Assembly: GCF_900090215.1 (NCBI RefSeq)
Contig: NZ_LT594522.1
Coordinates: 1 to 32,000, forward strand
Direction: 5' to 3'
Origin: a secondary endosymbiont of Trabutina mannipara
GTDB taxonomy: Bacteria; Pseudomonadota; Gammaproteobacteria; Enterobacterales; Enterobacteriaceae
Length of the DNA: 32,000 nucleotides
The notes under the pieces were generated by a model, which was given only the letters and a program-made list of their open reading frames with translations, did not search any database and was not told where the DNA came from. The translations under genes and the position numbers were made by a program. This document shows, piece after piece, positions 3,811 through 29,142 of the stretch (within the stretch, counting starts at the first letter, position 1; every line of letters starts with the position of its first letter).

Positions 3811-4612
3811 ATGAATTATTTATGAAAATTATGTATTTTAGTAACAGGTATTGCTAATAATAGTTCAATTGCTTATTGTTTTGCTATATGAAAAGGTGCA
3901 TAGCTTGCATTTTCTTATCAAGAAATAAATTTAAATTAAGATTATAAAAATTTGCTGCTAATTTAAATTCTATTTTTAATTCTTTAATTCTATTTTTTAA
4001 TTTCTAGTATTACCATGTGATGTAACAACAAATACAAGTAGATACAAGTATTAAAAAATGATTTAATAGTCTTGCATATATTTGGGTAAAATTTGATTAT
4101 TTTGTACATTATATATCTTAATCTTATGTTCCTAAAACACAATTAGATAGTGACTATGTTAATTAATCGTGAAAGTTTTATTATTACACACGATATTAGT
4201 TCTTATAGTTTTGTAGTTATGGCTAAAGCTAGTAGGTCAATGCTTAAATCTTCTCTAATTACATTTGACTTCTATACATTTGACTTCTATAGGAGCTGAA
4301 CGTACTATTATAATGGGCTGAGGGCTGACTGAGTTAAATCATTATATGGCAATGCTATGGGTCCACATAATATTCAAATTAATGCTATTTATGTAGGTCA
4401 TGTACTTTATCTGCATTAGGTATAAAAAAAGTTTTTAAAATATATCTTATTATAAATCAGTAACACCCATTAGGAATTTAATTTGATGATATTGGTTTTT
4501 CTGCTTTTTATGTTCAAATTTATCAACAGGAATAACTGGAGAAATCATACATGTAGAAGATGGAGGTTTAAATTCAATTGCTATGATGAATTTATTAGAA
4601 TTTATTAGATAA
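3811..4612 (+). pseudogene. fabI: Enoyl-ACP reductase FabI pseudogene with many in-frame stops and frameshifts
   Basis: Recognisable FabI segments survive in shifting frames: ILVTGIANNSSIAY, LAFSYQ, HDISSYSFVVMAKA, GAERTI, VTPIR and TGEIIHVEDGGLNSIAMMNLLE. TGA, TAG and TAA codons interrupt the reading frame from codon 5 onward. There is also a 15-bp internal tandem duplication at 4261-4290. Confidence 0.85.
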
Positions 4613-4908: not shown

Positions 4909-7124
4909 CTAAAGTGTAGCTATATCGCTTTTACTTAAAATTTTTATGGTATTTTTACAAGTATCATTGATACACAACATATAATTTCCAAAACAACCTT
5001 GTTTTAAATACATATTATAGCTACATTTTTTACATTTTGTTGTTATAATATGATTTAAATTACTTTTTTTAATTTTATATCCATTACATAATGGATTTTT
5101 ACCACAAATATAAAAAATATTATGTTGACCGTAAATAATATAACAATCCATAATTGTATTGCAATTATGACAATATTGCTGAGGTAATAATATATCTTTT
5201 TTAAGATTAAAATTTTTAATTATATTTAAAATTTCTAATTTTGGAATTAAATTAATAGTATTTTTGCATTTTTCTTTTATATTCATAGTATAACTGGAAC
5301 AACCAAGAAAAACACCAGTACTAGTAGTACAAATCATCATTTTCTTTTTACAGATTGAACAATCAATATCAGTAATTACTGATTTATTTAATTGCATACC
5401 ACCATCTTTAGGATCTTTTTTAGCAATTTCTAATTTTTGTAAAAATTTTTTAAAAAAAATATTTAATACATTTTTCCAATATTGTTGATTAATAGCTATT
5501 AAATCAAGATTATTTTCCATTTTAGCAGTAAAATCATAACTAATTAATTCATTAAAACTTTCTTCTAATCTATCTGTTACTATTTCTCCTATTTTTTTTG
5601 CATAAAAACGATTATCTATTGTATGTACATATCCACGATTTTTAATTGTAGTGATAATTGATACATATGTAGATGGTCTACCAATACCTTTTTTTTCAAG
5701 TTCTTTTACTAAAGATGCTTCACAATAACGAACAGGAGGTTTAGTAAAACATTGATTAGGTATTAATTTAATAAGTTTTAATTTTTCTCCTATTTTTAAT
5801 ATTGGTAATATTTTATCGTTATAATGTTGGCCTAACAAAGGCATAATTTTAATCCATCCATCAAAAAGCAATGTTCTACCAGAAGTATGCAATTTAAAAT
5901 TATCAGCTTTTACAGTAATATTAATAAAATTATATTTTGCTGACATCATTTGACAAGCAATAAATTGATTAAATATTAAGTTATATAAGTTTTGTGCATC
6001 TAATTTTAGATTTTTTATTTTTTTTTCTGAGATAATATTAATGTAAGAAGGACGAATTGCTTCATGTGCTTCTTGAAGATTATTTTTATTAGTATATTTT
6101 CTTTCTTTTTTTGAAAGATAAGATTTTCCGAAAACTTTTAAAATATATTCACGTGCCATATTAATAGCATCTTGACTTAAATGAGTAGAGTCAGTACGCA
6201 TATAAGTAATATAACCAGCTTCATATAATTGTTGTGCTAATAACATAGTTTTTTTTATATTATAATTAAGACGAACATTAGCTGCTTGTTGTAGTGTGGC
6301 AGTAGTAAATGGTGCACTTGGTTTACTAAAAGTAATTTTTTCAAAACTATTAATGACAAAAAAATCTATTTTTTTTAATATATCTATTGCTAATTTAATT
6401 TTATTTTTATTTTTAGGTTTAAATATTTTTTCTTTTTTATGTGTTACTTGTAGTGTTAATGGTAAATTTTTAGAATTTTTTAGATAAGCATATAATTTAT
6501 AATATTCTTCTGAAACAAATGATTTAATTTTACGTTCTCTTTCTACTACTAATTTAACAGCTACTGATTGAACTCGTCCTGCTGACAAGCCACGTGATAT
6601 TTTTTTACATAATAGAGGAGAAATCATATATCCTATTATGCGATCCATAAATCTTCTTGTTTGTTGAGCATTTACATAGTTAATATTTAATTTTTTAGTA
6701 AATTTAAATGCTTTTATAATTGCATTATGGGTAATTTCATTAAATACTACTCTACTAAAATTAGTATTATTACCACCTATTACTTTACGTAAATGCCAAG
6801 CTATTGCTTCTCCTTCACGATCTAAATCAGTTGCTAAATAAATATGATTTACTTCTTTAGCAATTTTTTTTAATTCAATAATTATTTTTTCTTTACCAGG
6901 TAAAATTTCATATGAAGCATTCCATTCATTAAATGGATCAATTCCTATTTGATTAAATAATAATTTATGTGAATTTAATTTTGTTTTTTTTTATAATTTA
7001 AATTTTTTTGTGATAAATCACGGATATGACCAAAGCTAGATTTTACTATATATTCTTCTCCTAAATATTTATTTATTGTTTTAGCTTTAGCAGGAGATTC
7101 AACAATAACTAAGAATTTATTCAT
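4909..7124 (-). CDS. topA: DNA topoisomerase I, interrupted by a frameshift in an A9 tract, so either rescued by slippage or a very young pseudogene
   Basis: The ATG at 7124 opens [37 protein letters not shown]..., the TopA Toprim N-terminus, and this frame stops at codon 50 (6977-6975). A second frame opens at 6990 and encodes ...[20 protein letters not shown]...[17 protein letters not shown]...[10 protein letters not shown], running into the listed 579-aa ORF (4909-6648). That ORF carries the catalytic region and three Cys4 zinc-ribbon motifs. The span is 2216 nt, one short of a multiple of three. Confidence 0.88.
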
Positions 7125-7145: not shown

Positions 7146-7369
7146 TCATAGCCTATAATCTACGAAATTCATGATTCCTTCTGGACGGATAACATTATAT
7201 ATACCATTAATTGAAATAATTTTTTTAAAAAGTTATTTTAAAAAAGCAGCTTTACCATCTTTAAGTTGCACACTATTTATACATTTATACGAAGTAAATA
7301 ATCAAAAATAGTTTTTCTGCCTTTTAGATAAGGTATGGGATGTACAAATTTACCCTTTGGGTTTATGAT
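7146..7369 (-). pseudogene. rluB: Short degraded relic resembling 23S rRNA pseudouridine synthase RluB (YciL)
   Basis: Minus-strand fragments GRKTIFDYL, LKDGKAAFLK and INGIYNVIRPEG..VDYRL resemble RluB segments GRPTVFDRL, LEDGPAAFKT and INQWYNVTLTEGRNREVRRL. The position between topA and trpE matches E. coli gene order. It is higher in GC than the surrounding spacer. Only about 70 codons remain and the frame is broken. Confidence 0.4.
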
Positions 7370-7576
7370 AAACTATCATACGATAAACTATATTTTAATT
7401 TTATAATATAAATTTAAAATATAAATTTTAAATTAATCTCAATACGATCACCTAAATTAGCTTTATAGCTTTATTTTTGTTTAAGAATGTCTTTGTTTTA
7501 AAATTTTTTATTTTTTTATACTAAATTTTTTATTGTAAATATGCTATTATAAATAAAAAATAATCTTAAAAGAAAA

Positions 7577-9154
7577 ATGTTAAATAATAATATAGAAGTT
7601 TTATATGCAAGAGCTAATTATAATACTAATTCTATAGCTATATTTAATAAATTGTGTGGTAATCGTCCTGCAACACTTTTATTGGAATCAGCTGAAATTG
7701 ATAAAAAAAATGATATTGAAAGTATAATAATAATTGATAGTGCACTACGTATTACATCTTTGGGTCAAACTGTTATAATTAAAGCTATAAGTAGAAATGG
7801 TTATGCACTATTATTACAATTAAAAAATATTTTACCTAAAACTATAAAAATAATTAATTATCAATTTAGTATGAAATTATTATTTCCATTAATTGACAAA
7901 AATCTTGATGAAGATGCTAGATTACGTTCGTTATCAGTATTTGATTGTCTACGTTCTTTACTAAAATTAGTAAACCAACCTCCAAATATGCCTAAAGCAA
8001 TGTTTTTTGGTGGATTATTTTCCTACGATCTTATATCAGTATTTGAAAATATACCAATTTTACAACAAAAACAGCATTGCCCTGATTATTGTTTTTATCT
8101 AGCTGAAACATTATTAACTATTAATCATCAGCAAAAAAACTGTGAATTACAGTGTAGTCTTTTTAGATCTAGTTTAACTGAAAAAAATCGTTTGCAACAT
8201 CGACTTAAAGAATTACAATATCAAATTAATCAATCACCAGAATTAATACAACATCAAATTATTGATAATATGAAGTTAACATACAACCATAGTAATGAAG
8301 AATATCGAAAAATTATACGTTGTATGCAACAAAAAATTATAAAAGGAGAAATTTTTCAAGTAGTACCATCACGACGATTTTTTCTTCCTTGTCCTTCAAC
8401 ACTTGCTGCATATTCTACATTAAAGAATATTAACCCTAGTCCATATATGTTTTATATGCAAGATAATGAATTTACTCTTTTTGGTGCTTCACCAGAAAGG
8501 TCTTTAAAATATGATCCTAATACAAGACAAATTGAAATATGCCCTATTGCTGGAACTAGGATACGTGGTCGTCATATTGATGGAACATTAGATGTTGATC
8601 TTGATAGCCGTATTGAGCTAAATATGCGTTCTGATCATAAAGAACTTGCAGAACATTTAATGTTAGTAGATCTTGCACGTAATGACTTAGCTCGTATTTG
8701 TGATCCAGGTACTAGATATGTAGCTGATTTAATTAAAGTTGATCGTTATTCTTTTGTCATGCATTTAGTTTCTAGGGTAATAGGAAAATTAAGATCTGAT
8801 TTAGATATGCTACATGCATATCTAGCTTGTATGAATATGGGTACACTTAGTGGAACACCAAAAATACGAGCAATGCAAATAATCGCTGAAGTAGAAGGTG
8901 AACGTAGGGGTAGTTATGGAGGTGCTATTGGTTACTTTACTGCTACAGGAATATTAGATACTTGTATTGTTATTCGTTCTGCTTATGTTGAGAATAATAT
9001 TGCTACTGTCCAATCAGGAGCTGGTATAGTATTGGATTCAATTCCACAAAATGAAGTTGATGAAAGTATTAATAAAGCTCGCGCTGTTTTACATGCTATT
9101 GCTACTGCACATGAAGCAAAGGATATTTTAAATGGCAGATATTTTACTACTTGA
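7577..9154 (+). CDS. trpE: Anthranilate synthase component I
   Basis: The 525-aa ORF carries chorismate-binding motifs ([43 protein letters not shown]) and matches E. coli TrpE in length. Its last 23 nt overlap trpG. Confidence 0.93.
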
Positions 9155-9710
9155 TAATATTGATTCATTTACTTATAATTTAGTAGATCAGCTTCGTGCC
9201 TCTAATCATAGAGTGATAATTTATCGAAATAATCTTCCTACTTTTTTTATTATAAAAGAAATTTTAAAAATTAAAAATCCAATTTTAATTTTATCTCCAG
9301 GACCAGGAATTCCTTCTCAAGCTGGTTGTATGTTAGAATTACTTACAAAGTTACGTGGTAAATTGCCTATAATAGGAATTTGTTTGGGACATCAAGCAAT
9401 AATTTTATCTTATGGAGGATATATTGTTCAAGCAGACGAAATAATACATGGTAAAGCTTCTTTAATTAATCACGATAATCAAGATATGTTTGCTGGGATG
9501 TCAAATCCACTTTTAGTAGCACGTTATCATTCTTTTATAGGAAAAGATATACCATCATCACTAACTATCAATGCTAATTATAATAATATAGTTATGGCAA
9601 TACGTAATAATAATGATAGAATATGTGGTTTTCAGTTTCATCCTGAATCTATTTTAACTACTCAAGGAACTCATTTATTAAATAATACAATTTTATGGGC
9701 TCTTTCGTAA
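9132..9710 (+). CDS. trpG: Anthranilate synthase component II (glutamine amidotransferase only, no fused phosphoribosyltransferase domain)
   Basis: [22 protein letters not shown]...SPGPG.PS.AGCM...GICLGHQAI...[10 protein letters not shown] matches residues 1 to about 195 of the E. coli bifunctional TrpG-D protein. The ORF stops at the domain boundary after 192 aa. Confidence 0.92.
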
Positions 9711-9804
9711 AAAATTAATAATTAGTAATAAAATTAACAGTTGTTTAAAATATTATTCAAATTTTATTTGAAATACGTAATTTTTTAAAAGGATTTTAAA
9801 ATAG

Positions 9805-11169
9805 ATGAAAGATACAATACTTACTAAAATTATTAAAGATAAATATGAATGGATAACTAAACTTAAAAAATTATATCCATTAAAAAGTTTTAATCATAAA
9901 GTTAATCCTAGTACACGCAGTTTTTATCATGCAATTTCTGATAATAATAAAATAGAATTTATTCTAGAATGCAAAAAAGCATCGCCTTCTAAAGGAATTA
10001 TTTGTTCTGATTTTGATCCAATTAATATTGCCAGTATTTATCGACATTATGCTTCAGTAATTTCTGTACTAACAGAAGAAAAATATTTTAAAGGAAATTT
10101 AAATTTTTTAAGACAAGTAAGTCAGTCAATTAACCAACCAATATTATGTAAAGATTTTATTATTGATCCTTGGCAAATTTACTTAGCACGTTTATATCAA
10201 GCTGATGCTATTCTACTTATGTTATCTATTCTTAATGATGATAATTACTGTAAACTAGTGACAGTAGCACACCATTTAAATATGGGTATCTTAACTGAAG
10301 TTATCAACAATAAAGAACGTAATCGTGCAATTTCATTAAAAGCAAAAGTAATAGGCATTAACAATCGTGATTTAAGATATTTATCTATTAATTTAAACAG
10401 AATTAATGTTTTAAGTCCAAAATTACCAGCAGATATAAATATTATAAGTGAATCTGGCATTACTATTTGTAATAAAGTACGTAAAATAAGTAACTATACT
10501 AATGGATTTTTAATTGGCAGTACTTTAATGGCTGAAACAAATTTAATAACATCTCTATTTAAGATCCTCTTAGGAGCAAATAAAGTTTGCGGTTTAACCC
10601 GTACTATAGATGCGCGAGCTTCCATAGAATCAGGAGCTATTTATGGTGGACTTATTTTTATTCCAGGTACCCCAAGAGTTATAAATGAAAACATTGCCCA
10701 AAATATTATTTCTAGTGCTGCATTGCATTATGTAGGAGTATTTAGTAATAATTCAATCAAAAAAATTGTAAATATTACTACTAAATTAGCAATATCAATT
10801 TTACAACTACATGGCAATGAAAATCAAAATTATATTGATATATTAAATCAATATTTAGTATCAGATGGTTATCTTTGGAAAGTATTCGATATTTTTAATA
10901 TTATACTACCAATTAATAATTTATCTAAAATAGATCGCTATGTACTTGATAATGGTGGTGGAAGCGGTAAATCTTTTAATTGGTTACTCTTAAATGAAAT
11001 AAAATTAGATAATATTATGTTAGCTGGGGGATTAACTACAGCTAATTGTATAGCTGCAACACGTTTAGGATGTGCTGGAATTGATTTTAATTCCAAATTA
11101 GAAATTGAACCTGGTATTAAAGATCATAAAAAAATATCTACTGTATTTGATACATTACGTTCTTATTAA
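9805..11169 (+). CDS. trpC: Bifunctional indole-3-glycerol-phosphate synthase / phosphoribosylanthranilate isomerase
   Basis: The 454-aa ORF is colinear over its full length with E. coli TrpC(F). Shared segments include [53 protein letters not shown] and QLHGNE. Confidence 0.92.
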
Positions 11170-11216: not shown

Positions 11217-12407
11217 ATGACACTAATTAATCCATATTTTGGCGAATTTGGTGGTATGTATGTACCACAAATACTAGTACCTGCACTTCTTCAATTAGAA
11301 GAAGAATTTGTAAATGCACAAAATGATCCTAAATTTAATATAGAATTTAAAAATATGCTTACTAAATATGCTGGAAGACCCACTCCAATAACAGAATGTC
11401 ATAATTTAACTATTGGTACTAATGCTAAATTATATTTAAAACGTGAAGATCTGCTTCATGGAGGTGCTCATAAAACAAACCAAGTATTAGGTCAAGCATT
11501 ATTAGCTAAACGTATGGGAAAAACTGAAATTATTGCTGAAACTGGAGCTGGTCAGCACGGAGTAGCTTCTGCTTTGTCTTCTGCATTATTAAGATTAAAA
11601 TGTCGTATTTATATGGGTGCTAAAGATATAGAACGTCAATCACCAAATGTATTTCGTATGAAACTTATGGGCGCTGAAGTGATTCCAGTACATAGTGGAT
11701 CTTCAACTTTAAAAGATGCTTGTAATGAAGCATTGCGTGATTGGTCTGGTAATTATGAAAAAGCACATTATATGTTAGGTACTGCAGCTGGTCCACATCC
11801 TTTTCCAACTATAGTACGAGAATTTCAAAAAATGATAGGCGAAGAAACAAGAGCACAAATGTATGAACAAGAACATTGTTTACCCAATGCAATAATTGCA
11901 TGCGTTGGAGGCGGATCTAATGCTATAGGCATATTTAATGAATTCATTAATGAACCTAAAGTTCGTTTAATAGGAGTAGAATCGGGAGGTTTAGGTATTG
12001 AAACAGGCAAGCATGGAGCTTCTTTAAAATATGGAAGAACCGGAATTTATTTCGGTATGAAATCACCTATGCTACAATCATCTGAGGGACAAATTAAAGA
12101 ATCTTATTCTATTTCTGCTGGTCTTGATTTTCCTTCTGTTGGTCCTCAACATGCCTATCTTAATAGTATAGGTCGTGCAGAATATGTATCGATAACAGAT
12201 AAAGAAGCCTTAGATGCTTTTAAGATTCTTTCTCGTTATGAAGGAATTATACCTGCACTGGAATCTTCCCATGCACTTGCTTATGCATTAAAAATGATTA
12301 GATCAGAACCAGATAAAAAGCAAATTTTAGTAGTAAATTTATCAGGTCGCGGGGATAAAGATATTTTTACAGTTCATAAGATTTTATCTTCAAAAGGAGA
12401 AATTTAA
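11217..12407 (+). CDS. trpB: Tryptophan synthase beta chain
   Basis: [43 protein letters not shown] and GGGSNAIG are the canonical TrpB PLP motifs. The ORF is 396 aa. Confidence 0.96.
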
Positions 12408-13228
12408 TGGAACGATATAAAAAATTATTTAGTAAATTAATAAATTCTAATGAAGGTGCTTTTGTACCATTTGTAATACTTGGAGATCCTAATCCCATAA
12501 TTTCTCTGCAAATTATTGATACAATTATTAATGCTGGAGCTGATGCTCTTGAATTAGGTATTCCATTTTCGGATCCTCTAGCAGATGGACCTACTATTCA
12601 AAAAGCTAATTTACGTGCATTTAATTCAGGAGTTACATTTGATTCTTGTTTTGAAATGTTAACTACAATTCGTAAAAAATATATATCAATCCCTATTGGG
12701 TTGTTAATTTATGCTAATTTAGTATATAATAAAGGATTAGATTTTTTTTATTATCTTTGTAATAAAGTTGGTATTGATTCTGTGTTGGTAGCAGATGTAC
12801 CTTTATTAGAGAGCCTTTCTTTTCGAAATTCTGCTCGTCGTTATAATATATCCCCTATTTTTATTTGTCCTCCTAATGCTGATCTTCTTCTTTTACAAGA
12901 AATAACTTTATATAGTAAAGCATATATTTATTTACTTTCACGTCCTGGTGTTACTGGTATTGAAAATAAAGGTAATATATTATTAACTAATTTAGTTAAT
13001 AAGTTGAAAAAATATAATGCAGCACCTATCTTACAAGGTTTTGGTATTTCTGAACCAGAACAAGTACGTATTGCGTTACATAATGGAATATCAGGTGTAA
13101 TATCTGGATCAGCAATAATATCTATTATTGAATATAATTTAAATAATACATCTTTAATTTTTAAAAAAATTTTTAAATTTATTTTTGAAATGAAAGCTGC
13201 AACTTATTTAAAAAAACTTTCTTTATAG
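12407..13228 (+). CDS. trpA: Tryptophan synthase alpha chain
   Basis: The start overlaps the trpB stop (TAATG), giving translational coupling as in E. coli. Motifs include [32 protein letters not shown] and GFGIS. The ORF is 273 aa. Confidence 0.93.
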
Positions 13229-13383: not shown

Positions 13384-14844
13384 ATGATAATGCTTTTTTG
13401 TACTATAAGCAACTGGCTATCAATATTATTTTATTGGTTGTTAATTACAAGCGTAACTTTACGGGTAATAATGAAACGTCGTGCAGTACCTGCGGCTATG
13501 TCTTGGTTATTAGTAATTTATATTTTACCTTTGTTAGGTATTATGATCTATCTTTTATTCGGTGAATCTAATCTAGATAAATATCGTAAAAAACGTAGTA
13601 AAGATATATGGCAATCTACTACTAAATTGATTAAAAATCTTAAAGAATATCAACGTATTTTTTCTAATGAAAATAGTGAATTAGCTAGCTCTTTATTTAA
13701 ATTATGTGAAAATAGACAGGGATTTAAAGGTCTTAAAGGTAATAAAATAAAATTATTAACTAACACAGATAATGCATTAAAGATGCTAATTAATGATGTT
13801 AATAAAGCACAAAAAAATATTGAGATAGTTTTTTATATTTGGCAAATAGGTGGCTTAGTAGACAAAGTAGCAGAAGCTTTAATGGCTGCAGCACGTAGGG
13901 GAGTGCATTGTAGGTTAATACTAGATTCAGCAGGAAGTATGAATTTTTTTCGTAGTTCTTATCATTCAAAAATGCGTGCTGCTGGAATTAATATAGTAGA
14001 AGCACTACATGTAAGTATTTTATGTATATTTATACGACGTATGGATTTACGACAGCATCGCAAAATGGTGTTAATTGATAATTATATTGCATATACTGGA
14101 AGTATGAATATGGTAGATCCACGTTTTTTCAAAAAAAATATAGGTATTGGTCAATGGATAGATATTCTTCTACGTATAGAAGGACCCATAGCAGTAGTTA
14201 TGGGTATTATATTTTCATATGATTGGGAAATAGAAACTGGTGAACGTATTCTTCCACAACCCAAAATAAATATTATACCATTTTCAAAAAAATCAGAAAA
14301 TATTATTCAAATAATTGCTTCAGGTCCTTGTTTTCATGAAGGAATTATCCATCAAGCATTGCTTACATCTATTTATGCAGCACGTAAAAAATTAGTTATT
14401 ACTACACCTTATTTAGTTCCAAGCGATGATTTACTTTATGCTATTTGTACCGCAGCACAGCGTGGAGTAAAAGTACATATTATAGTTCCCCGTTATAATG
14501 ATTCATTATTGGTCAGTTGGGCTAGTAGAGCATTTTTTACAGAACTTTTAGAAGCTGGTGTGCACATATACCAATTTGAAGATGGTTTATTACACACAAA
14601 GAGTGTTTTAGTAGATGGTCAATTAAGTCTAGTAGGTACAGTAAATTTAGATATGCGTAGTTTATGGTTAAATTTTGAAATAACTTTAGTTATCGATGAT
14701 ACAAATTTTGGTAATGATCTTGCTAAAGTACAAAATTATTATATGAAAAGATCAAAAATTCTAGCAAATAGAATTTGGTCACAGCGTCCATACTGGCAAC
14801 GTATTATTGAACGCTTATTTTATTTTCTTAGTCCATTACTTTAA
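13384..14844 (+). CDS. clsA: Cardiolipin synthase A
   Basis: The 486-aa ORF is colinear with E. coli ClsA ([20 protein letters not shown]; two HKD motifs RQHRKM..IDN and [11 protein letters not shown]; C-terminus ERLFYF.SPLL). The start could be Met1 or Met3. Confidence 0.93.
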
Positions 14845-14956
14845 TTTTTAATAACTTATCAAGTAATAAAATTTATATAAAAATTTGATTTATTATATAT
14901 AATTGTAGATTAATAAATAAAAAATTAATCTTTTTAACAAGATACGTACTACTAAT

Positions 14957-14986
14957 ATAATTAATTAATTTATAATTAATTAATTT
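14957..14986. repeat. Perfect tandem duplication of a 15-bp unit (ataattaattaattt x2)
   Basis: Read directly at 14957-14971 and 14972-14986, in the clsA/xthA spacer. Confidence 0.85.
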
Positions 14987-15000
14987 ATCGAATTTAGATT

Positions 15001-15034
15001 AGATTTATAATTATAGATAGATTTATAATTATAG
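15001..15034. repeat. Direct repeat agatttataattatag x2 separated by 2 nt
   Basis: Copies lie at 15001-15016 and 15019-15034, in the same spacer as the previous repeat. Confidence 0.85.
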
Positions 15035-15082
15035 TATGTTAAATAACATTTGTAAAAATAATAAAATTATATTTTCTCAAAT

Positions 15083-15892
15083 ATGATATTTGTTTCTTTT
15101 AATATAAATGGGTTACGTGCTAGAATACATCAGCTTAAAGAAATTATAACTAGATTACATCCTGATGTAATTGGTTTACAGGAAACAAAAGTTCATGACA
15201 ATATGTTTCCTGTAAATGAGATATTAAGTTATGGTTATAATGTTTACTATCACGGACAAAAAAGTCACTATGGAGTAGCATTACTTAGTCGTAAAAAACC
15301 TTTAGAAATTCGTCGTGGATTTTGTACTGATAATAATCAATCTCAAAAAAGGATTATTATGGCTGATTTTATTACAAAAAAAGGATTATTGACGGTTATC
15401 AATGGATATTTTCCACATGGAGAAAATCGTAATCATCCAATAAAATTTCCAGCAAAAGAGTTTTTTTTCCAAAATTTACAGAAATATGTAGAAAAAAACC
15501 ACAATAGTGGAAAATCTTTACTTATTATTATGGGAGATATGAATGTTTGTTTTACAGATCTAGATATTGGTATTGAAGAAAAAAATAGTAATAGATGGCT
15601 TAGTATAGGAAAATGTTCTTTTCTTTATGAAGAAAGAATTTGGGTAAAACGTTTACTTGATTGGGGAATGATAGATACTTATCGTAAAATGAATCCTACT
15701 AATAATGATTATTACTCATGGTTTGACTATCGTTCACGATGTTTTAATAACAATTTAGGACTTCGTATTGATTTTTTATTAGCTTCATTACCATTATCAA
15801 CAATGATTAAAAATACAGGAATAGATTACAATATTCGTGCAATGAATAATCCTTCAGATCATGCACCTGTATGGACAGATTTTAATCTCTAA
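15083..15892 (+). CDS. xthA: Exodeoxyribonuclease III
   Basis: The 269-aa [20 protein letters not shown]...[15 protein letters not shown]...PSDHAPVW is colinear with E. coli XthA, which I recall as 268 aa. Confidence 0.93.
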
Positions 15893-16140
15893 AATATTTT
15901 TTTAAAAAAAAAAGATTTAAGTATGTTTTTTATATTAGTCACTATAATTTTTTTGCAGTATCTGCAGTACTATTTTTTTACATTGTAAAAATAAATTAAA
16001 TTATTGATTTAATATTCTTAATAAAAAACTACTATTTTATGTAAAAAATGAACATATTATTATTAATGGTAAAATTATACGTTTTTTTTATGAAAAAATC
16101 ATCTATTTTTTTTACTAAAAATATTGGATTTTTTTTCCAT

Positions 16141-16656
16141 ATGATAAAAGTATTATATTACTTTTCCCAAAATAGGATAATATGGTTTTTATTAGCACTA
16201 ACTACCTTAACATTAGAAAGTGTTGCACTTTACATGCAGCATATAATGCTATTAAAACCATGTGTATGGTGTATCTATCAACGTTGTACTTTATATGGAT
16301 TATTAATAGCAAGTTTGGTGGGTATTATTGCTCCTAAAACTCCACTACGTTTCGTGGGATTAGCAATTTGGATATATAGTGCTTTACAGGGTTTGTTACT
16401 AGCAATAAATTATCTTAATACTTCTTCGTTTATTATTTGTGATAATTTTTCAAATTTGCCTATTTTGCTACCATTATATAAGTGGTTACCATTAGTATTT
16501 AACACTAATAATAGCTATTGCACTATTAGCAAATTGCGTTTTTTTTCAATTGAAATGCCGCAATTGATGATTATTATATTTATTTTTTATTTAATAATAG
16601 CAGTAATTATTTTGGTTGCACAAATATTACCCTTGTATAAGGATAAACTAAAGTAA
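16141..16656 (+). CDS. dsbB: Disulfide bond formation protein B
   Basis: MIKVLYYFSQNR..W.L.A.T...LE..AL..QH.MLLKPCV.CIY.RC matches E. coli DsbB from its own Met1. Both Cys pairs are retained (CVWC, and C in FIICDNF / NNSYC). I placed the start at Met32 of the listed ORF. The upstream 31 codons are poly-T/AT-rich with no homology. Confidence 0.85.
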   Translation: MIKVLYYFSQNRIIWFLLALTTLTLESVALYMQHIMLLKPCVWCIYQRCTLYGLLIASLVGIIAPKTPLRFVGLAIWIYSALQGLLLAINYLNTSSFIICDNFSNLPILLPLYKWLPLVFNTNNSYCTISKLRFFSIEMPQLMIIIFIFYLIIAVIILVAQILPLYKDKLK

Positions 16657-19647: not shown

Positions 19648-19994
19648 ATGAGTCAATTTTAAATTGTACCATTACATTTCAATGATTCAGCTGTCAATAA
19701 AGTTAAAAATATTATATCTAATGAAGATAATCATAATCTAAAATTAAGAGTATATGTTATAGTAGGTGGTTGTAGGGGCTTCAAGTATTGTTTTACTTTA
19801 GATGAGAAAGTAAATAAAAACGATATTATTTTTGAAAAAAAAGGTGTATATCTAATTATTGAAAATATAAGCTTATTATATCTTGCAGGTAGTTCAGTTG
19901 ATTATAGCGAAAATTTAGAAGGGTCTCGTTTTATAGTTATTAAACCTAATGCTCTAAGAATACATGCAATTGTGGATTATCATTTAGTATTTGA
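19648..19994 (+). pseudogene. erpA: Fe-S cluster insertion protein ErpA (HesB/IscA family) pseudogene
   Basis: The translation [52 protein letters not shown]...[20 protein letters not shown] tracks E. coli ErpA closely. Codon 5 is TAA. A 1-nt deletion near 19955 moves the conserved C-terminus [10 protein letters not shown] (E. coli TCGCGSSFSI*) into another frame. Confidence 0.8.
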
Positions 19995-26694: not shown

Positions 26695-26767
26695 GGCCCT
26701 TTAGCTCAGTGGTTAGAGCAGGCGACTCATAATCGTTTGGTCGCTGGTTCAAATCCAGCAGGGGCCA
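26695..26767 (+). tRNA. ileX: tRNA-Ile2 (anticodon CAU, predicted lysidine-modified, ileX-like); 3' CCA not encoded
   Basis: A cloverleaf can be drawn: acceptor ggccctt/aggggcc, D arm gctc-agtggtta-gagc, anticodon arm ggcga-ctCATaa-tcgtt, variable loop tggtc, T arm gctgg-ttcaaat-ccagc. It is near-identical to E. coli ileX as I recall it and occupies the same position downstream of rpoD. The discriminator A is followed by ata, not CCA. Elongator tRNA-Met is the alternative reading of CAU. Confidence 0.8.
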
Positions 26768-28761: not shown

Positions 28762-29142
28762 GGGGCTGATTTATGGATTTGACGAAATTTGCGAAACCTA
28801 AGGTGCATGTCGAGGTGAGGTTTGCCTCGTAAAAAGCCTCAAAAAAATAAATGCAAATCAATTGCAATATGAATCTGCTTTAGCAGCTTAATCAGTTTAA
28901 TAAACTGAAGATTCCCTTTCTATCCTCTATTTTCTCTTTAAAAGGAATTTAAGAAAGGTTACAAATAAAAGAGATCGCGTTAAATTTTTGTCTGAGGATA
29001 AAACGTTAAATTTAATCAGACTAATTTATTAGTATAACGTGTCAGTTCGTTATTAATAATTAAAATTTAAAATTGTACTAAACATGTAGTGCTAAAGAAG
29101 TAGAAATTTCGGACGCGGGTTCAAATCCCGCCAGCTCCACCA
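28762..29142 (+). ncRNA. ssrA: tmRNA (SsrA), one-piece, 3' CCA encoded
   Basis: The 5' end GGGGCTGATTTATGGATTTGACG.AATTTGCGAAACC.AAGGTGCATG and the 3' end GGACGCGGGTTCAAATCCCGCCAGCTCCACCA match the E. coli ssrA tRNA-like domain. The tag ORF at 28853-28891 (resume codon GCA) reads ANQLQYESALAA then TAA. Confidence 0.95.

Follow-up and report, generated by a model that had tools for sequence, protein, structure and literature searches.

A tryptophan operon without trpD in 'Candidatus Trabutinella endobia', the inner symbiont of a nested mealybug symbiosis

We analysed a 32-kb stretch of DNA (the window) from the secondary endosymbiont of the manna mealybug Trabutina mannipara. The window is gene-dense, has a G+C content of 27%, and carries a tryptophan operon in the order trpE, trpG, trpC(F), trpB and trpA (Table 1). 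The predicted TrpE, TrpG and TrpCF proteins are 100% identical to the GenBank entries SBT81896.1, SBT81897.1 and SBT81898.1; for TrpCF this identity extends over 454 aa of the NCBI protein 'Tryptophan biosynthesis protein TrpCF [secondary endosymbiont of Trabutina mannipara]'. Judged by these protein identities, the window comes from the 298-kb (298,471-bp) chromosome of 'Candidatus Trabutinella endobia' (Trabutinella), whose genome was described by Szabo et al. (ISME J 2017, PMC5322300). Trabutinella is a gammaproteobacterium living inside the betaproteobacterium 'Candidatus Tremblaya princeps' (Tremblaya) in T. mannipara (PMC5322300, Figure 1 legend). The protein identities and this published location inside Tremblaya together place the operon in the inner symbiont of a mealybug nested symbiosis.

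Table 1. Features of the tryptophan operon and of other loci discussed in the text (positions within the window).
Feature	Position	Strand	Evidence or remark
fabI-like (short-chain dehydrogenase) pseudogene, eroded	3811-4594	+	two frames
topA	4909-7124	-	frameshift at A9 run 6984-6992
topA, remaining piece, 579 aa	4909-6648	-
topA, N-terminal ORF, 49 aa	6975-7124	-
rluB (pseudouridine synthase) remnant	~7150-7461	-	between topA and trpE
trpE, anthranilate synthase component I, 525 aa, intact	7577..9154	+	ORF; Pfam Anth_synt_I_N and Chorismate_bind full length; = SBT81896.1
trpG, glutamine amidotransferase component II, 192 aa, stand-alone, natural stop	9132..9710	+	Pfam GATase only; = SBT81897.1
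AT-rich spacer, 94 bp, at the relatives' trpD position	9711..9804	.	3' end = trpC(F) ribosome-binding site AAAAGGA
trpC(F), bifunctional IGP synthase / PRA isomerase, 454 aa, intact	9805..11169	+	Pfam IGPS 6-247, PRAI 259-449; = SBT81898.1
trpB, tryptophan synthase beta, 396 aa, intact	11217..12407	+	Pfam PALP
trpA, tryptophan synthase alpha, 273 aa, intact	12407..13228	+	Pfam Trp_syntA 1-258/259
cls (cardiolipin synthase), intact	13384-14844	+
gap of 238 bp	14845-15082		no hns remnant (tblastn)
dsbB	16048-16656
erpA-like	19648-19991	+	no listed ORF of at least 80 aa
tRNA-Met(CAT)	26695-26767	+	after rpoD
tmRNA	28762-29142	+	directly after smpB
MscK/MscM-like mechanosensitive channel, 688 aa	29720-31786	-	only C-terminal ~270 residues match models

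All five trp genes are full-length open reading frames, and their domains are completely covered according to the ORF listing and Pfam. An earlier note on this DNA, made from its letters, had described TrpG as an amidotransferase only. This was confirmed, as GATase is its sole Pfam domain (residues 5-187). The catalytic columns Cys84, His170 and Glu172 are kept in an alignment with the fused TrpG-TrpD protein of E. coli, and TrpG runs to about E. coli residue 192, immediately ahead of the linker of the fusion. The note thus gave the end point of TrpG correctly, but the E. coli fusion is the wrong comparator, because relatives that retain trpD carry it as a separate gene that starts 14-15 bp past the stop of a 192-aa trpG. 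In alignments, the length and C-terminal end of TrpG match those of Moranella and Gullanella, which live inside Tremblaya in other mealybugs, and TrpG is also 192 aa long in the intra-Tremblaya symbionts Hoaglandella and Doolittlea. A Pfam scan found no phosphoribosyltransferase domain in TrpC(F). Position 1 of the IGPS profile matches residue 6 and is followed by the PRAI domain, and the claim that no transferase is hidden in this protein was borne out.

The operon is flanked by topA (minus strand) on one side and cls on the other. A plasmid origin of trpEG, as in Buchnera, was rejected because the operon lies between these two chromosomal genes, and it is also disfavoured by the best Buchnera plasmid TrpG among the matches listed, which is ~65% identical. 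Upstream of trpE, no match to the Rfam Trp-leader was obtained; hence classical attenuation was not detected there. The reading frames of trpE and trpG overlap by 23 nt (9132-9154), as compared to 1 nt in Mikella, Moranella, Gullanella, Hoaglandella and Doolittlea, and the tail of TrpE (…NGRYFTT) resembles a read-through past a lost original stop codon.

The gene for anthranilate phosphoribosyltransferase, trpD, is missing from the operon and from the window. A tblastn search of the whole 32-kb window with the intact TrpD of Gullanella as query revealed no similarity to TrpD (best E-value 8.5, as expected by chance). The earlier note had reported trpD as absent with all other steps intact, and its coordinates for the gap proved exact to the base. 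The accessions SBT81896 to SBT81898 are consecutive, which implies that the depositors too annotated nothing between trpG and trpCF. The absence of trpD is an observation for the 32 of 298 kb read here, and its absence from the entire genome of Trabutinella is based on published statements and on elimination, as set out below.

The trp loci of the sequenced intra-Tremblaya symbionts were retrieved via their TrpCF proteins, and genome sizes were taken from the sequence records (Table 2). A scan of a collection of genome contigs with TrpCF as query yielded none but distant relatives, at 28-45% identity. This comparison of sister lineages, which the earlier note had proposed, yielded trpD-less operons in Mikella, Moranella and Hoaglandella and a retained trpD in Gullanella and Doolittlea. 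The order in the latter two is trpE-trpG(192 aa)-trpD-trpCF-trpB-trpA. The former three show trpG, a gap and trpCF, with no TrpD domain, and thus share the operon architecture of the window.

Table 2. State of the trpD position in six symbionts living inside Tremblaya.
Symbiont	Source	Genome size	trpD position
Gullanella	LN999832	938 kb	intact separate trpD, 335 aa
Doolittlea	LN999833	835 kb	intact separate trpD, 332 aa
Hoaglandella	LN999835	628 kb	563-bp eroded gap, no ORF
Moranella	CP002243	538 kb	84-bp gap
Mikella	LN999831	353 kb	130-bp gap
Trabutinella	window	298 kb	94-bp gap

On the evidence of these gene orders, the ancestral state is that of separate trpG and trpD genes, with Gullanella and Doolittlea representing the state before the loss. 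Since the two genes are separate in this lineage, TrpG of Trabutinella ends at its natural stop, and it is a whole gene that is missing. In Hoaglandella, the 3' third of the gap and the 3' end of trpD show a weak collinear match by nhmmer (E = 0.003), and the gap ends in GCAAGAGGATAA, which corresponds to the last codons, the stop codon and the trpC Shine-Dalgarno sequence as found in Gullanella. The gap of Moranella keeps CAGCAAGAGGAT, and the last ~12 nt of trpD survive in this spacer. Such remnants of the trpD 3' end are marginal, and were found in Moranella and Hoaglandella only. Moranella and Hoaglandella still have a discernible 3' edge with the ribosome-binding site, and between Mikella and Trabutinella this edge is conserved.

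The gap marks the final stage of an ordinary erosion by deletion, which runs from ~1 kb via 563 bp to roughly 100 bp. The 'clean excision' that the earlier note had singled out as unusual is nothing of the kind, as the 563-bp intermediate of Hoaglandella illustrates, and the feature had already been published. The gap sizes (~1 kb, 563, 130, 94 and 84 bp) follow genome shrinkage only loosely. What is newly added here is the explicit series of trpD decay over six symbiont genomes, together with the demonstration that the spacer lacks special structure. The series of intact genes, a 563-bp remnant and spacers of 84-130 bp could act as a natural time course of the decay of a redundant gene after symbiont replacement.

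Among the matches listed, Mikella is the closest relative of Trabutinella, with 71% identity in TrpCF, and the two cluster in a phylogenomic tree (PMC11032189). In the region covered by both loci they share a highly derived gene order (tusCD, tusA, rplU, rpmA, obg ... trpEG-CF-BA, cls, xthA, dsbB, tsaB, pcnB, dksA). Moreover, the 20 nt at the 3' end of the spacer are near-identical in the two symbionts (alignment z ~3 against shuffled sequences). The gene order, the spacer alignment and the tree together suggest that trpD was probably lost before Mikella and Trabutinella split.

Three explanations for the missing step had been offered in the earlier note, with no preference among them, namely relocation of trpD, supply by a co-resident symbiont or the host, and a very recent loss that breaks the pathway. 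The evidence favours a split pathway, with a co-resident symbiont providing the step. According to the genome paper, tryptophan is made by both bacterial partners jointly, with the same partition of amino acid steps as in the Planococcus citri system, and Tremblaya TM differs very little from Tremblaya PCIT in gene content (PMC5322300). Husnik and McCutcheon reported that the tryptophan pathway depends on a Tremblaya gene in three mealybug systems. These three hosts are exactly those with Mikella, Moranella and Hoaglandella, the symbionts that miss only trpD, and the two hosts outside this set are those whose symbiont retains trpD (Gullanella and Doolittlea). The texts covered here do not name trpD, the assignment being made in figures. 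As the Tremblaya-dependent hosts coincide with the trpD-less symbionts, we infer by elimination that the Tremblaya gene is trpD. Hence, TrpD of Tremblaya very probably fills the gap in Trabutinella, in a pathway split between nested bacteria, and the symbiont's own trpD was very probably lost as redundant and then eroded.

Relocation of trpD to another part of the Trabutinella chromosome, which would leave the symbiont self-sufficient for tryptophan, has to be considered because 32 of the 298 kb were examined, and because the gene order is heavily rearranged relative to E. coli, which makes relocation mechanistically possible. However, genes seldom relocate in the absence of mobile elements when a genome is as highly reduced as this one. 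Furthermore, the published analyses assign the missing step to Tremblaya: the genome paper has both partners making tryptophan with a partition like that in P. citri (PMC5322300), and dependence on a Tremblaya gene was reported for three systems that share this operon structure (Husnik and McCutcheon). We therefore consider relocation very unlikely. The step could also be supplied by the insect, for instance from a bacterial trpD that the mealybug nuclear genome had gained by horizontal transfer, as mealybug genomes carry the expressed bacterial gap-filling genes cysK, dapF, lysA, bioABD and ribAD. Yet trpD is missing from the listed transferred genes, and the genome paper sets tryptophan and threonine, as amino acids made by the bacteria alone, apart from those that need host genes (PMC5322300), so that the chance of a host-encoded TrpD appears to be slim indeed.

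Selection on the remaining trp genes was assessed by comparing Trabutinella with Mikella, using the Nei-Gojobori method for the five trp genes and for twelve non-trp genes of the window. The trp proteins had 71-91% amino acid identity and dN/dS ratios of 0.14-0.53, as compared to 54-80% identity and dN/dS ratios of 0.30-0.72 in the twelve non-trp genes; these ratios are meaningful as a relative ranking only, since dS is underestimated at extreme AT bias. In this ranking, trpB (91% identity) had the lowest dN/dS of the window at 0.14, and trpE (81% identity) had a dN/dS of 0.35; TrpA was 75% identical. The trp genes thus rank among the most constrained genes of the window, in agreement with the earlier claim that all five are full length and conserved.

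The full-length genes, their position in the conservation ranking and the intact triad columns of TrpG make a decaying pathway unlikely. That the pathway is already broken, with the remaining trp genes on their way to becoming pseudogenes, would fit a genome that is still shrinking, with 27 reported pseudogenes (PMC5322300) and with broken copies of topA, a fabI-like gene, rluB and erpA inside the window itself. Against this, the five trp genes have complete domain coverage, they are more conserved relative to Mikella than most neighbouring housekeeping genes, TrpB most clearly so, and the trpD-less operon persists intact in at least four symbiont genomes. Hence, a broken pathway is scarcely credible. 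The suggestion of a very recent, pathway-breaking loss is likewise disfavoured, given that Mikella has the same gap, that no trpD remnant is left and that the five genes are conserved.

Searches of the 94-bp spacer for a trpD remnant, at both the protein and the DNA level, found nothing above shuffled sequences. The predicted fold of the spacer is no better than that of shuffled sequence (z = +0.9). No promoter-like or terminator-like site was found on its plus strand, and it had no match in Rfam. The weak AT hairpin described previously does exist, as a perfect 7-bp inverted repeat at 9756-9772, but it is at chance level, with 110 equivalents in the window and one in 39% of the shuffled spacers, and it is absent from the spacer of Mikella. 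The sole conserved block, TTTAAAAGGATTTTAAAAT, lies directly upstream of the trpC(F) ATG, in the ribosome-binding region, and its conservation is accounted for by the Shine-Dalgarno sequence. Given the fold, the hairpin statistics, the site scan and the Rfam search, a structured RNA, a terminator and a promoter were all rejected. The inverted repeat and the conserved final 20 nt notwithstanding, these results leave virtually no chance that the spacer is a functional element (an internal promoter, a terminator or attenuator, or a small RNA) instead of an inert leftover. The genes trpEG and trpCF-BA probably still form one co-transcribed unit.

The supply of TrpD by Tremblaya suggests the following sequence of events. 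The operon of the ancestor would have been of the Sodalis type, trpE-trpG-trpD-trpC(F)-trpB-trpA, in which trpG and trpD are separate. As Tremblaya keeps its own trpD, the copy in the symbiont would have been redundant. The symbiont trpD would then have been inactivated and progressively shortened under the deletion bias that characterises endosymbiont genomes in the course of shrinking, leaving as residue a short spacer that still bears the ribosome-binding site of trpC(F). In the resulting pathway, TrpE and TrpG of Trabutinella would convert chorismate to anthranilate, TrpD of Tremblaya would convert anthranilate and PRPP to phosphoribosyl-anthranilate, and TrpC(F), TrpB and TrpA of Trabutinella would complete the conversion to tryptophan.

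Phosphoribosyl-anthranilate is phosphorylated, charged and chemically labile. Trabutinella is reported to have lost all transporters but one mechanosensitive channel, and to have no genes for cell-envelope synthesis (PMC5322300). This channel is the sole transporter-like gene left, and has been proposed as a route of metabolite release (PMC5322300); for the Moranella system, it was proposed that products reach Tremblaya via sporadic lysis or leakage through mechanosensitive channels (PMC3804617). Neither aminoacyl-tRNA synthetases nor release factors are present in Tremblaya (PMC5322300), which implies that proteins of the inner cell must enter its cytoplasm anyway. A labile, charged intermediate, the near-absence of transporters and the expected entry of proteins into Tremblaya favour the sharing of enzymes over a double membrane crossing. 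It therefore seems more likely that the enzymes work in one compartment, the cytoplasm of Tremblaya, which they would reach by leakage or lysis of the inner cell, than that the intermediate crosses the membranes twice. A stronger proposal, which we regard as possible but doubtful, is that the outsourcing of TrpD works only if enzymes are shared, either because the Trp enzymes are released into Tremblaya or because TrpD enters Trabutinella, and that trpD, which has eroded repeatedly (in three or more lineages of gammaproteobacteria), did so as a deterministic consequence of its retention by Tremblaya. If enzymes are indeed shared, the trp locus would be a handy marker for protein exchange between nested bacteria. 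The MscK-like channel encoded in the window (Table 1) bears on the exit of anthranilate from Trabutinella.

The feature itself is already known, as it belongs to the published 'metabolic patchwork' of mealybugs. The genome of Trabutinella and its partition of amino acid steps were published in 2016-2017, and a trpD-less operon also occurs in the well-known Moranella/Tremblaya princeps PCIT system of P. citri, where the patchwork was originally described. This is a textbook case of interlocked nested bacteria, in which one middle step of a six-gene pathway would reside in the outer cell, with the flanking steps in the inner cell. Moranella has the same arrangement of trpE, trpG (192 aa), a spacer, trpCF, trpB and trpA; it lives in the same host bacterium species as Trabutinella, and the partition of amino acid steps is reported to be the same (PMC5322300). 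Moranella differs, however, in being an independent lineage of inner symbionts with minimal synteny with Trabutinella (PMC5322300). Its genome is also larger (538 kb versus 298 kb), its trpCF has a G+C content of ~46%, and its spacer retains the end of trpD, whereas the spacer of Trabutinella has no detectable remnant. Mikella endobia PMAR from Paracoccus marginatus likewise has a trpD-less operon in a near-identical derived gene order. In contrast to the window, where these genes are eroded or absent, Mikella keeps fabI-like, rluB, hns and erpA; conversely, the window keeps a frameshifted topA beside trpE, unlike Mikella. The Sodalis-allied Gullanella endobia (from Ferrisia virgata) and Doolittlea endobia (from Maconellicoccus hirsutus) have the same operon frame and a 192-aa TrpG, but an intact separate trpD.

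Two symbionts also divide the pathway in Buchnera BCc with Serratia symbiotica SCc (Cinara cedri) and in Carsonella with a secondary symbiont (Heteropsylla cubana), where trpEG and trpDCBA are split and the first partner exports anthranilate. In these systems, a single cut places all steps after anthranilate in the second partner. In Trabutinella, trpC(F), trpB and trpA are in one operon with trpEG; only the TrpD step would be outsourced and the pathway would then return. Hence, the Trabutinella-Tremblaya pair would require two exchanges or shared enzymes, and its partners are nested, unlike those of the Buchnera-Serratia and Carsonella systems.

Several other observations concern the remainder of the window. 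Its G+C content compares with 32.6% for the Trabutinella chromosome (PMC5322300); either the window is exceptionally rich in A+T, or the published value is inexact. A single frameshift, located at nine consecutive A residues, divides topA into two pieces (Table 1), with another frame open across the junction. Either topA has become a pseudogene recently, or transcriptional slippage on the poly(A) run rescues it, as described for other AT-rich endosymbionts. The fabI-like pseudogene is ~40% identical to the intact Mikella protein, and fits the report that remnants of fabGZI persist in Trabutinella (PMC5322300). At the site equivalent to that of the rluB remnant, rluB is intact in Mikella, Hoaglandella, Gullanella and Moranella. 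The erpA-like sequence is 69% identical to residues 1-98 of Mikella ErpA, its frame breaks before the final 13 residues, and it is probably a recent pseudogene; the function of erpA was assigned to Tremblaya (PMC5322300). In Mikella, hns lies between cls and xthA (15495-15914 of the Mikella locus), and tblastn found no hns remnant in the 238-bp gap downstream of cls in the window. Trabutinella was reported to be without any known gene for generating a cell envelope (PMC5322300), yet cls is kept in the window and is 80% identical to that of Mikella. The gene dsbB is retained as well. Furthermore, the window contains a tRNA-Met(CAT) gene and a tmRNA gene, the latter with the tag ANQLQYESALAA.
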